IMG/VR virus record: IMGVR_UViG_2926493430_000001
Span: 3,023 to 67,022 of that record
Direction: 5' to 3' (one strand)
Source: a virus
Lineage: Duplodnaviria > Caudoviricetes
Length of the DNA stretch: 64,000 nucleotides
Shown: positions 3,009 through 24,350 of the stretch, in pieces
Layout: each line of letters starts with the position of its first letter
Numbering within the stretch: the first letter of the stretch is position 1
Notes under the pieces: model-generated
Databases searched by the model: none
What the model saw: only the letters and a program-made list of their open reading frames with translations
Told to the model about the DNA's origin: nothing
Made by a program: the position numbers and the translations under genes

Positions 3009-6000
3009 TTAATAGTTATGTTTTTTTATCCGGTAATGAAACACTTCTCTGGTTCCACCCTTTTCCGGTGCTTTGAATCTTTCTAGCTTACCTTGCTTCA
3101 TTAAAGGTCTCAAAATAACTTGGAAGATGTGCGAATCAGAAATGACCATCCGCTCATTCATAAAACGTACAATCTCTTTAAGATCCTTTGGCTCCTCGCA
3201 AAATACTAACAGCTCCTCCACCTCAGGCCCTTTGAGTAATGCCTCATGTTTTTCCTTCGTTTTCTGCTTCTTTTGCTGGCTTTTTAACTTGACATAATCA
3301 GCATAGGTTTCCGGCATTTCTTGTTCCAGTTCAAATATGAGATGGTAGGTGACCTTTCCATCTTTACACACTTCTGCTCGACTAATGAATTCTTGAAACA
3401 AATCGTCAGGAAAGTCCTCGCTTGCTCCTTCCACATGCTTTTTCACCTTTTTCATGATTTCCTTAAACATTTTTCTCTCATGTTCCACACGTCTTTCTCG
3501 TTCACTAAAGTGTTTCAGTCGGTCATGCAACTCCACCAGTTCTTCTGTCAGCTTATCCACCAGCTGAGTGTTTTGGCCGTTTTCATGAATACCCTCTTCT
3601 ACAGCTTTATACAAGTCTTGGTTTTGTTTTTCCACTCTTTCTTGCAAATCTATTTTTTCCTGCTTCTCTTCCTCTGTTAATTCCAATCTATTAATCCAAT
3701 GCAAGACGTCATTTTTAAAATTAGGGTCCGCATGAATTTGGTTTAAAAAGCGGATGAAGTTCCACTCTAAATAATCCTGGCGAATACGCCTTGTATCGCA
3801 TCGTTCAGTTCTATATCTCTGATCATGGCGACAGCACACCCAGAAGTGCGTTTCCATTGGTTTTTTCCATCGTCTCTCTACATGCCGTCTATGCCCCATC
3901 AAATATCCACATTCACCACAATACAGTTTTTCAATAAAAGCTTCATTTTTCATTTCATCTTTTTCATACTTCCGATGTCCATCTTTGATAAATCCTTTTT
4001 TCCGTTCTTCTAAAATATCCTGAACCCGTTCCCAGTCCTTTGGCTTAATGATCGGCTCATGATGATTTTCAATATAATACTGTGGTTCCTCCCCCTGATT
4101 ACGGATGACCTTGGATTGTAGTGTATCGACTGTCACATGTTTTTGAAATAAATAATCGCCTTTATATACTTCATTTGTTAACATTGCCATCACTGATTTA
4201 GGATTCCAATAGTCTTTTCCTGTCGCTGTTTTAATCCCATCACCGGCTAAGTCTTCACATATTTTATTAACGGTTTTCCCTCTCAACACTTCCCTAAAAA
4301 TACGTTTGATGATTTTGGCTTGCTCTGGCTGGATATGCCACCGATATTCATCGTCCACCCAATATCCATACGTAGCCTTTTTCCACCGGATAATTCCTCG
4401 TTTGGCCTGACTCCGATGTCCCCAAGCAATGCTCCTCCCAACATTCATGACTTCTTCTTGGGCGATGGCACCGTAGATGGACATCATCAACTCTGATTGG
4501 GGGTCTGACGTCCAGATGTTCTCCTTCTCAAAATAAATATAAACAGGGGTTGGGAGTTGTTTCAGGTGTCGTGCAATGGAAAGGGTATCTAATGCATTCC
4601 GGCTAAAGCGAGAAATGGACTTTGTGATGATGACGTTAACAAGTCCTCGTTCACAATCCTTCAAGAGTTGGTTTAATTGATCTCGCTTTTCCAAGGAACG
4701 CCCTGTGATTCCTTCATCTGCGTAGATACCCGCAAATTCATAGGATGGGTCTTTCAGAATGAGATACGTATAATATGCTACCTGAGTTTTCATGCTTGTT
4801 TTCTGTTCTAAGCGATCGGTTGAAACCCTACAGTAAGCAGCTGTCTTGAGTGTTTTTTTACTTTTTTGCAAATGATCAGGCTTTTCATTTCCTATCCGTG
4901 CATTCTCAATCGTTTCAAGAATGGCCTTCCCCTCACCTGGTTCTATCTTTTGTACTTCTCGCTCAACCATAGTATTCACTTCTTTTTCCCTCTTCTCTTT
5001 TAAAGCCCCATGTTCATCGAGAAGGGTCAGTTCATGATTCACCTCCTTCTTGGGGCTAACTTTTTTCTTTGGTTTATTTTTCTGGGTTGAATGAATGGAT
5101 TTGCTTTCAGATAATTGACCAACCATCAAGCTTGTCCCATCAAACCATTCAACTTGATAGTTTTTTTCATTTTCTATCGTGATTTGATGAATCCATGCAC
5201 GTAAGTATTCCGTCGTTACGTTTTGATGGAACTCTTCCATAGACTGTAGTTTGTCTAGCCATTCCAATGTCTTCAGACGAAAAGGACGGTCATCTTCTAT
5301 TTGAGCAACCTGTTTTTCAAACGCTTGATATTCTTTTTCTAAGGCATTTATCTTTTCTGGATCCTCATTACTTTCCTTTGCTATCTCCAATTCCGTTAAC
5401 CATTTCAACCGATGAAATTCAAAATGGTCCTGCTGATTGGTCGCTTTAAGTTCTTTCTGCAACTGGGCAAGACTATCCGATTGATTCAATTCATATTTTA
5501 TGCTCATCGCTTGTAATGCCATATGTTTTAATTGCTCTTCATTTATGTTTGGAGCATCGCATGTTTTGGCATTACTCGAAGCACACTTCCAGTAGTCAAT
5601 TCTAGGACTAGGGAAAAATTTATATCGATATCCACAAGCATGGCAAATGAGCTTTTGGGAGAATGCCGGTCGATTTCTCTTCGTTGGTATTCCTGTATTT
5701 CTTTTGTTGCTTTCTATACGCCTCTGCACTTCATCAAAAACTTCCCGACTGATGATTGGAGGGTGGGTGTTTTCTATCTCAATCTCCTCACGATCGTGAT
5801 AAGTCATTTTGTGAGTGAAAAGATCTCTGGTCGCAGTTCTTGCCATCATATTTCCCGTGTATGTGTAAGTCATTAGCATTTTTTTGATATTGGAAGCCAA
5901 CCATCTATCTTTTCCGTTAGCTGTTTTAATCCCTTGTCTGTATAATTCTCTTGTAATTTCAGCCCTCGACCACCCTTGTAGAAACCAATCAAAAATGTTA

Positions 6001-22742: not shown

Positions 22743-24350
22743 TTAAAATTCCACTTCTATATTCTCCCCGGTCACAAATGTGAAAGAAAATAGAAAAGGT
22801 GATAGTGCCTTCACACGTATCACCCATGCTCTCATACATTCGATTTCATTTAATTCTTCCATTAAGCTATCAAAGGATATACTTGTAAAAGACATGTTTC
22901 TTAGTTTTTCAAGTACGTTTTTTCTTAATTCCGTATCGGCTTCAATAAGATTCCACCACTCCTCTTTTTCCTTTATTTCTAGCTCTGTTGCAATCCTCAT
23001 AGATCTTAAGTACTCAATTTTCTCATCTTTCCCTTCAAGGAGTGCATTACTCTCTTCATAAAGGGTTTTTTCCAGTTTAATGCGAAGTTGGTTATATTCG
23101 GCATCACCTTTTATTTCGATGTTATTTATATCCTTCATCATTTTAAGGATAGTTTTTCTTGGTTCCTCATCTTGTTCCGTTGGCTCATACTTTGCTTTTA
23201 ATGCCGCTAACATTGCTGAATGAACATATTCCTCTTTAATGCCTTCCATCGCGCAAAGCTCATGGCTCTTAGTTCTTTTTCCACATCTCCACGTAACTAC
23301 CCCTCTACATATGAACCTTTGCAAGTTTCCACCACATTTTCCACATACAATTCTGCTAGATAAGGGGTATCTATTCCTTTTCCCTTCCTTACTTGGCTTA
23401 GCTCTTTGCTTCAGTTTTTCTTGAGCTCTTTTAAAAGTTTCCCTATCCACAATTGGTTCGTGATGATCACTGATTAGGTATAAATTTTTCTCGCCCTTGT
23501 TTTTTATAGATGCGTGGCTTATGTGATCCTTACTATAAGTTTTCTGCCCCAGAACATCGCCAACATAATTAATATTTTTCAGCATTTCCCTTATCGCTGT
23601 TCCAGACCACTCATTCTTGCCTTTAATAGTTTTATAGCCTTTTCTTATAAAGATTCTAGCAATCTCTGGTGGTGTGTACCCTTCAACACATAGTTCAAAT
23701 GCCTCTTTCACAATACCTGCTTCTTCTTGATTAACTATCCAATTTTTATATTTATCTTGACCATACCCAAGTACACGATGAAACTTTGGCTGCCCTCTTT
23801 CCAGCCGTTTGACATTAGCCCATTTGATATTTTCGGAAATACTGCGACTTTCTTCTTGAGCCACTGCCGCCATCATCGTTAATATAAACTCGCTTTGCAT
23901 GTTCTCGGTATCAAGATCTTCTTTTTCGAAGATTAATCTGACCCCATTCTCCTTCAACATTCGAACTGTCTCCAACGTATCCAGAACATTTCTCGCAAAG
24001 CGGGAAACACTTTTGCAAAGAATCAAGTCTATTTTTCCTTCCAGTGCATGTCGAATTAATCGGTTAAATCCAGAGCGGCTTGAAGTTAATGTCCCACTTT
24101 TTCCGTGATCCGTATAAATTCCTACCATTCTATAATTTGGGTTTGAACGAATATGTCTAGCATAGTAGCTAGTTTGATTCTCCAATGAATCTTCCTGTTC
24201 ATCCGAGAGGGTACTAACTCTCACATAAGCTGCTACCTTCAAAGGTTTTAACTGCACTTCAGTTCCTTGCTTTGTTAGTAGGTAATTTGATGTAAACTCA
24301 CTTAATTCTCCATTGTCTGTCAATGTTTGGCCAAACAAGGTTTCTCCCAT
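22743..24350 (-). CDS. Large serine recombinase
   Basis: AAYVRVST, KSVSRFARN, AQEESRSISEN, CGKCG zinc ribbon. Confidence 0.93.
   Translation of the reverse strand: MGETLFGQTLTDNGELSEFTSNYLLTKQGTEVQLKPLKVAAYVRVSTLSDEQEDSLENQTSYYARHIRSNPNYRMVGIYTDHGKSGTLTSSRSGFNRLIRHALEGKIDLILCKSVSRFARNVLDTLETVRMLKENGVRLIFEKEDLDTENMQSEFILTMMAAVAQEESRSISENIKWANVKRLERGQPKFHRVLGYGQDKYKNWIVNQEEAGIVKEAFELCVEGYTPPEIARIFIRKGYKTIKGKNEWSGTAIREMLKNINYVGDVLGQKTYSKDHISHASIKNKGEKNLYLISDHHEPIVDRETFKRAQEKLKQRAKPSKEGKRNRYPLSSRIVCGKCGGNLQRFICRGVVTWRCGKRTKSHELCAMEGIKEEYVHSAMLAALKAKYEPTEQDEEPRKTILKMMKDINNIEIKGDAEYNQLRIKLEKTLYEESNALLEGKDEKIEYLRSMRIATELEIKEKEEWWNLIEADTELRKNVLEKLRNMSFTSISFDSLMEELNEIECMRAWVIRVKALSPFLFSFTFVTGENIEVEF

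Follow-up and report, generated by a model that had tools for sequence, protein, structure and literature searches.

The stretch of DNA analyzed here, referred to below as the window, comprises 64,000 nucleotides (nt) of a tailed virus (Duplodnaviria; Caudoviricetes; IMG/VR record IMGVR_UViG_2926493430_000001, positions 3,023 to 67,022). It contains a module of large serine recombinase (LSR) genes, all on the minus strand, preceded by the tail genes, the holin (25571-25978) and the endolysin (24589-25578). After the endolysin gene the order is SR1, the 5' piece of SR2, an insert of 14.3 kb, the 3' piece of SR2 and, 67 nt beyond SR2, an open reading frame (ORF) of 1226 amino acids (aa) that encodes two LSR units in a single chain (Table 1). 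No terminator-like site was found on the coding strand within the module. Two cargo genes follow the fusion gene, each with a terminator-like site behind it, and neither could be assigned to a family.

The four units have the domain content of LSRs. In Pfam searches, Resolvase (PF00239) is present in all four of them, and Recombinase (PF07508) and Zn_ribbon_recom (PF13408) each have one match in SR1, one in the 3' piece of SR2 and two in the large ORF, which also has two Resolvase stretches. The initial annotation, made from the sequence alone, had reported that the Y-x-R-(V/I)-S signature is kept in all four catalytic domains, and this is confirmed at each motif position: YVRVS at residues 42-46 of SR1, YARIS at 35-39 of SR2, and YCRVS at both 54-58 and 619-623 of the fusion. 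Its gene sizes of 535 aa, 551 aa (restored) and about 1208 aa agree with the coordinates found here (ORFs 22743-24350 and 3009-6689 for SR1 and the large gene), and its placing of the four units in one group is borne out by seven complete modules of the same order in which each position is monophyletic. Pairwise identity among the four units is 27-50%, which marks them as old paralogues and not as recent copies. The genome to which the window belongs has 16 Resolvase-domain matches in total. Its contigs C7, C49, C51 and C53 carry more LSR genes; among these are a tandem pair (C7; 530 and 524 aa) and gene fragments located at the ends of contigs.

The large gene is, as had been proposed, a true fusion of two LSR genes. 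Two complete units stand in one frame, each with its catalytic motif, and SR1-like and SR2-like genes lie ahead of them, the SR2-like gene being split. A search for homologues among proteins of 674-2146 aa yielded 86 hits, 75 of which are 1050-1400 aa long, with identities from 92% down to 29% and mostly 96-100% query coverage; the orthologues that bear NCBI names have 1204-1212 aa. The hits come from Bacillaceae (Virgibacillus, Cytobacillus, Alkalihalophilus, Solibacillus and Litchfieldia) and from Clostridia (Desulfitispora, Heliorestis, Proteinivorax, Anaerotalea and Proteiniclasticum). The window protein was aligned with these 75 relatives (76 rows; the 11 hits outside 1050-1400 aa were left out). 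The catalytic Y, R and S of the N unit are kept in 73, 73 and 74 rows, the remainder being gaps, and those of the C unit in all 76. The reading frame is open in every one of the 75 relatives. Among the shorter proteins searched there was no clean split form: matches of at least 50% identity lack some domains or lie on short contigs, and the next ones are ordinary LSRs of 470-530 aa at no more than 42% identity. The family is rare: a sample of 400 further species genomes of the order gave five with a match at E <= 1e-100, and long fused frames were present in three of these. Judged by these homologues, the fusion dates far back, has been conserved and is no accident.

An AlphaFold2 model of fusion residues 28-1226, built on the 76-row alignment, has a mean predicted local distance difference test score (pLDDT) of 78.9 and a predicted template modelling score (pTM) of 0.54, and displays two full LSR domain sets. 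Between them lies a linker (model residues 503-557) with pLDDT below 50 except for one short helix. Long helices, candidates for the coiled-coil insert that in LSRs controls synapsis and direction, are predicted behind each zinc ribbon (model residues 379-453 and 979-1061), and there is an extra C-terminal tail of helices and strands. The closest fold matches of the model are the cryo-EM chains of full-length serine integrases 9dxd, 9y66, 9iu2 and 9rah; 4kis is also matched. Across the family the linker (reference residues 545-612) has 41-102 residues (median 66), and its conserved (R)EV.KIEPG arm is similar to VRVIPAK, the N-terminal arm of SR2. The C-terminal tail is conserved family-wide with the motif GPEV..LL.FC.EPK; the Pfam winged-helix domain Fic-like_C matches it in homologue P0034 and not in the window protein.

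The fusion does not stand alone. The complete order SR1-SR2-fusion was found in seven loci elsewhere. With the lengths of the SR1-like, SR2-like and fusion products given in aa, these are unit 1 of L002 in Niallia hominis (540, 553, 1107), L005 in Bacillus alkalicola (544, 555, 1224), the IMG/VR provirus L089 (539, 554, 1226), the virus contigs L088 (573, 556, 1267) and L090 (539, 568, 1289), phage PV036459 of the Ca. Heliusvirales from human faeces (L079; 566, 571, 1283) and the complete genome L180 (535, 546, 1191). Two further loci, L168 and L183, are partial, and L183 is nearly the same as L002 unit 1 (99% in SR2), hence not independent. In the human-gut phage (PV036459.1) the module lies directly 3' of the endolysin gene and the fusion is 32-37% identical; all three of its recombinase genes are annotated as hypothetical proteins. 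The accession PV036459 appeared in no paper that we found, and the Heliusvirales paper (PMC11283538) does not contain the words recombinase, integrase or serine. Examination of 80 phage and virus loci (79 virus contigs and L079) revealed an ordinary tandem LSR pair in 69 and a fused ORF in four, and in all four of the latter SR1-like and SR2-like genes are directly upstream. SR1 and SR2 overlap or are no more than 15 nt apart, and the fusion gene follows after 67-130 nt.

The relationships among the units were examined with a maximum-likelihood tree of 68 rows (IQ-TREE, short search). The rows were taken from the fused-module loci known at the time, minus L001 (truncated), L003, L007 and L008, plus 13 loci chosen by hand that have ordinary pairs, triplets or a quadruplet. 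The rows of each position (SR1, SR2, fusion N unit and fusion C unit) fall on one side of a starred branch with support of 99-100, so that each position is monophyletic across lineages that share just 30-45% identity. SR1 groups with the fusion N unit (support 100) and SR2 with the fusion C unit (support 96). Wherever the root of this tree is placed, no sampled row is closer to SR1 than the N unit, and the same holds for SR2 and the C unit. The module therefore arose by tandem duplication of an A-B pair into A1-B1-A2-B2, followed by fusion of A2 with B2. The pattern fits what a model of two different heterodimers, one per attachment (att) site, predicts, and is no proof of that model.

Table 1. 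Features of the recombinase module, its insert and adjoining DNA in the window
Feature	Coordinates	Strand	Remarks
Terminator-like hairpin	24543..24570	-	12-pair stem and T run; 3' of endolysin gene, divides lysis cassette from recombinase module
SR1, A-type unit	22743..24350	-	Complete LSR, 535 aa; catalytic Ser46 codon 24213-24215
SR2 5' piece, B-type unit	22321..22727	-	Residues 1-135; YARIS, Ser39 codon 22611-22613; ends with core TTCGAGAA
Satellite-like insert	8014..22320	.	14,315 bp core to core
Satellite DUF4839 lipoprotein	21117..21947
Satellite bacterial PH-domain protein	20397..20987
Satellite SPFH+SHOCT gene	19264..20376
Satellite amidoligase-like gene	15609..16280
Satellite major capsid protein	14649..15554	+	Domain search
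Satellite D5-type primase-helicase	11812..14073	+	Domain search
Satellite helix-turn-helix (HTH) repressor	10537..11124	-	Domain search
Satellite tyrosine integrase	9064..10431	-	Domain search
Satellite endonuclease/exonuclease/phosphatase-like gene	8273..9061		Absent from the relative in run X3
SR2 3' piece	6757..8013	-	Residues 136-551; end of catalytic domain, helix E, Recombinase domain, Zn ribbon, C-terminal region; core 8006-8013
Fused double LSR	3009..6689	-	1226-aa ORF from GTG; likely start ATG 6635, giving 1208 aa
Fusion N unit, A-type	4971..6689	-	Ser58 codon 6516-6518; catalytic domain, Recombinase, Zn ribbon with helical insert, beta C-terminus
Fusion linker	4938..5102	-	ORF residues ~530-584; (R)EV.KIEPG arm belonging to C unit, and Met574
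Fusion C unit, B-type	3009..4970	-	Ser623 codon 4821-4823; putative long coiled coil, extra C-terminal winged-helix-like tail (~3027-3227)
Two cargo genes 3' of fusion	872..2886	-	189-aa membrane-like ORF 2317-2886; 450-aa ORF 872-2224
Conserved element-end motif	676..720	-	...ATATTTTGCGTATTTTTATCCATCCAGCCTCACGGCG; junction to next, truncated recombinase unit
Second, older unit, its start	1..675	-	SR2-like 3' remnant from FLSHKRVRN codons on

SR2 is interrupted in the window. The ORF of its 5' piece (22266-22727; Resolvase profile positions 1-108 of 145) runs past the 8-bp core into satellite DNA and stops at 22266, and the ORF of its 3' piece (6757-7947), with Recombinase and Zn ribbon, is in a frame that stays open up to 8013. 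The core, TTCGAGAA, stands in the same SR2 frame at both junctions (22321-22328 and 8006-8013), inside the codons for F-E-(K)-E-N-I-D-T, the FEKEN-coding motif. Read through the core, SR2 has 135 + 416 = 551 aa, compared with 546-571 aa in intact orthologues, and if the insert were excised at the core, 551 codons would be left in an open frame. A contig from a sediment metagenome matches 7460-8013 except for a single difference, then resumes near 22473; this is SR2 without the insert. The insert itself has the features of a satellite resembling phage-inducible chromosomal islands (PICI): its own integrase, a repressor, a replication gene and a single capsid gene between 8014 and 22320. No terminase, tail or lysis family was matched among the 18 satellite ORFs scanned (10 in Pfam, 8 in PHROGs, the capsid gene in both; small ORFs lay outside the scan). 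Compost contigs hold a relative of 90-95% identity over 7997-22317, minus 8256-9046. In L167, a satellite related at 73-79% adjoins a different LSR gene (38% identical to SR2) at the same motif; the satellite family thus targets a conserved recombinase-coding motif. Within the satellite, perfect direct repeats lie 3' of the primase gene (14076-14369; 19 nt at 14076/14162 and 22 nt at 14261/14348, spaced 86-87 nt) and look like the iterons of a replication origin.

The two pieces of SR2 have different relatives. At the DNA level the window is 96% identical to provirus L089 from 8013 down to 872, including both cargo genes; identity is 55-70% in the SR2 5' piece and 76-82% in the phage body, and SR1 is without a DNA match. 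The change coincides exactly with the core, and the contrast of 96% with 55-70% indicates that the two halves belong to different lineages. The simplest explanation, we infer, is that DNA was exchanged at the site where the satellite attaches or between two copies of the satellite. The restored SR2 would be a chimera that was possibly never intact here. The restoration put forward in the initial annotation thus stands as far as the open frame of 135 + 416 codons is concerned, and has to be amended in that the pieces are not halves of one recent gene. Its further suggestion, that loss of one subunit by satellite insertion is meaningful, is upheld insofar as the insertion is not random, given the same motif in L167, and is weakened by the chimeric origin of the gene. 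We also considered an attP inside SR2 such that integration would split the operon; this is ruled out, as the module is contiguous in integrated prophages.

The window also contains part of an older unit. Its left end is an SR2-like 3' remnant, and farther left (contig C2:1-3673) this remnant, 264 aa in all, is followed by a second fused double LSR (C2:28-2811) with 53-60% identity to the first; the resemblance of this second fusion to LSRs stops at about residue 893 of a 927-aa ORF, near the contig end. Similarity between SR2 and the remnant begins sharply at 7602, corresponding to 675, and directly upstream of the remnant is a motif of 37-45 nt (676-720, Table 1) that is conserved in other genomes. 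The motif always lies behind a fusion gene and 0.2-7 kb of cargo. Twenty junctions of this motif were collected, 17 of them at LSR-coding DNA, where four codon positions recur, and three at other DNA (L006-18101, contig C34 of the same genome and L182-9173). The LSR junctions lie before FL(S/T)HKR in seven cases (the window, L003, L004, L005 and L006, possibly one inherited event, L002 and L181), before (L/V/Y)I(L/I)(T/C)K(S/N)(I/V)SR in five (L004, L007, L169 and twice in L170), before C(L/I)..I R.LK in four (L004, L007, L168 and L182) and before SLKTQV in one (L170). Of two unbiased scans for the motif, one found four exact copies in three viral loci, all at LSR DNA, and the other two copies in the genome of the window, one at LSR DNA and one at other DNA. 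A search of the window for the reverse complement of this motif, as a possible symmetric partner arm, returned only the motif itself. A second type of end motif (…TTCTATATATAGTTTTTTATCT…ATCATGGGG) adjoins SR2 genes at about 10028 in L002 and about 10012 in L004; the L002 junction is exactly at the FEKEN core used by the satellite of the window.

In our reading, such elements terminate on the right at the first motif, and the truncated genes either served as their targets or took part in later site-specific deletions; stacks such as those in L004 and L002 would thereby be explained. Newcomers, or later site-specific deletions, appear to use the recombinase-coding DNA of residents as attachment sites, leaving arrays of truncated SR2, intact fusion and cargo. 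The remnant does not fit a simple insertion of this prophage into a resident SR2, as no matching 5' half is present at the other prophage end and there is no further Resolvase hit on contig C2; a later collapse or site-specific deletion must be assumed. A matching left junction of the element was not found. The array probably continues on contig C34 (L171), at whose end stand the C-terminus of a fusion, an Abi-like gene and the motif, here joined to non-LSR DNA. Past the end of that array (L171, 4865-6920) there are a 444-aa ATPase-like ORF and an overlapping 244-aa ORF that may be a defence gene pair. The other prophage end (~58,000) adjoins the 3' fragment of an NAD-dependent epimerase gene, which with its terminator occupies 58053-58876 beside the prophage lysogeny module. 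Beside the related provirus L189 the fragment recurs with both ends unchanged (79% identity). It could be a marker of the primary attachment region, or it could move together with the element. Among 40 relatives searched with the right flank no empty site was found, only distant epimerase similarity.

On balance, we think it probable that the module serves integration and excision in a temperate phage of Bacillaceae, with A1 (SR1), B1 (SR2) and the single-chain A2-B2 cooperating in a heteromeric recombinase in the manner of CcrA and CcrB. Originally, A and B would have formed a heterodimer on each site. In the most economical arrangement after the duplication, the SR1·SR2 heterodimer would serve one att site and the fused, covalent heterodimer its partner, giving a synaptic tetramer with four different DNA-reading subunits that could accommodate four unlike half-sites. 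Such a heterotetramer, in which every half-site has its own subunit as the initial annotation had suggested, would be compatible with the data. In the structural model the disordered linker of about 55 residues would be long enough for subunit rotation; alternatively, the fused units might bridge two duplexes. The four units are predicted to catalyse conservative site-specific recombination between att sites. A stronger version, in which the hetero-tetramer (SR1 and SR2 with single-chain A-B on four half-sites) is obligate and its phages and satellites land on the ILTKSISRF, FEKEN and other motifs of residents, disabling the recombinase and stacking truncated units, strikes us as unlikely.

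Several points weigh against a heteromeric recombinase. Mutual binding of the four units is a supposition, and the single-chain model, at pTM 0.54, has no readable inter-domain geometry or pairing of the two catalytic domains. The asymmetry of the half-sites is likewise presumed. A covalent tie must survive the 180-degree rotation that separates site-bound subunits, and that the linker tolerates this is our inference. The tree comes from a short search in which ordinary tandem pairs and triplets are represented by the 13 hand-picked loci only. The 17:3 ratio of junctions is biased toward LSR neighbours, the loci having been found mostly via LSR similarity. The remnant arrays keep an intact fusion ORF where SR1 is lost and SR2 truncated, which would also fit a fusion that works alone. 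Finally, the gin element needs only one of its three LSRs for the reaction tested (PMC5595907).

That the arrays retain the fusion without SR1 is also the observation from which a division of labour might be argued: SR1 and SR2 as one heteromer and the fusion, as a dimer of single chains, as another, each with its own pair of sites or its own reaction, such as a primary attB and sites in resident recombinase genes, integration and excision, or multimer resolution. The duplication did yield two complete A-B pairs, the 67-130 nt gap ahead of the fusion stands against the tight coupling of SR1 and SR2, junctions are of two kinds (into non-LSR DNA and into LSR genes), and girAB and girC are independent in gin (PMC5595907). 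Both pairs are nevertheless present in the same order in 7/7 complete modules over deep divergence, and no element was seen with the fusion as its sole recombinase except for units whose SR2 is visibly truncated; we regard two separate systems as possible but doubtful. A further alternative is a single working integrase accompanied by redundant or decaying leftovers of nested or tandem elements, the four-unit operon having grown by accretion. The locus is indeed rich in remnants and chimeras, with a broken SR2 whose halves differ in ancestry and a truncated second unit behind the module, and in gin only GirC is needed (PMC5595907). Leftovers would not be expected to keep the catalytic Y, R and S in both units of 73-76 of 76 fused proteins, nor an identical order in seven complete modules with every position monophyletic at 30-45% identity, and we consider this explanation very improbable.

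The number of polypeptides in the cell would be different if the large ORF also gave a separate C-unit protein from the in-frame ATG at nt 4970 (residue 574), so that four separate subunits were present. The initial annotation had pointed to this start and to sequences in the linker resembling ribosome-binding sites. There are purine-rich codons upstream of this ATG, and some FB-type relatives have a Met one residue earlier (LMEREV). Most lineages have none, however, and Met574 is replaced by Thr in P0001-P0005, the five closest orthologues (87-92% identity), in a position that is variable in a frame that is open throughout the family. The AAGGAGG at about 5045-5051 fronts an out-of-frame ATG, and the nearest GAGG, in GAGGG, is about 18 nt from ATG 4970. 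Neither the putative ribosome-binding sites nor an obligatory start at 4970 is thus supported, and with no clean split genes among the shorter proteins searched, a separate C-unit product is hardly to be expected. The heteromeric recombinase of SR1, SR2 and an undivided fusion remains the interpretation that we favour.

In the full-text literature, subscription journals and supplements being outside the search, we found no description of natural fused or four-fold LSRs, nor of phage or satellite insertion into integrase genes; a broad search on heteromers turned up unrelated papers only, and a paper on recombination directionality factors (PMC12286644) has nothing on multi-integrase elements. 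LSR pairs, triplets and the gin trio are already in print; the new part, not found in the literature searched, is a conserved fusion of two LSRs within a four-unit module. Serine integrases are prized for genome engineering, one protein and two short sites being enough, and the module should interest those who study or engineer them. If the proposed mechanism is true, a natural four-reader system shows how serine integrases read fully asymmetric sites, and it could show subunit make-up setting direction or target choice. Why LSR genes come as pairs or triplets in many mobile elements has long been an open question, on which the module also bears directly and which it makes testable. It ranges from soil Bacillaceae to a phage order of the human gut and hence is no single-strain curiosity. 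The insertion of phages and satellites into the recombinase genes of others points to competition among mobile elements at the level of the integrase.

The module shares features with several known systems. Single-gene phage serine integrases such as those of phiC31, Bxb1 and the Listeria A118/LI type act as homotetramers with a directionality factor (Rutherford 2013, PMC3783163). The units described here have the same domain set and fold and the same position at a prophage end, but there are four different ones. In the staphylococcal cassette chromosome (SCC), the paired LSRs CcrA and CcrB act together on half-sites of which three are similar and one is distinct (PMC13739063 and PMC5595907). 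The likeness lies in the paralogous LSRs of a tight two-gene operon; here, by contrast, the pair is duplicated, the second pair is one chain, and the element is a tailed prophage and not SCC. The units are also distant from the named Ccr families, scoring 44-143 bits against cut-offs of 700-900 with the NCBIfam models for CcrA, CcrB and CcrC (NF047344, NF047343 and NF047347; CcrA has no match to the fusion C unit) and 97-108 bits against a cut-off of 375 bits with XisF, the excision recombinase of the fdxN element (NF041201). The serine-integrase triplets of Streptococcus integrative and conjugative elements (ICE) cluster by position (external, middle and internal), which was ascribed to ancestral duplications, and integrate into genes that include traG of another mobile element (Ambroset et al. 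2016, PMC4701971). They likewise consist of several LSR genes in a row at the element end with position-wise clustering, which we observe in a tree built without the Streptococcus triplet sequences, but they are three separate genes of conjugative elements without a fusion, whereas here four units are encoded in three genes. The gin element of Bacillus cereus, with GirA, GirB and GirC, is again a mobile element of Bacillus; it has three LSR genes, of which two form an operon, and differs in having no fusion and in not being a phage. Excision there needs only GirC and GirX, and girAB could be dispensed with and was silent in the conditions tested (Abe et al. 2017, PMC5595907).

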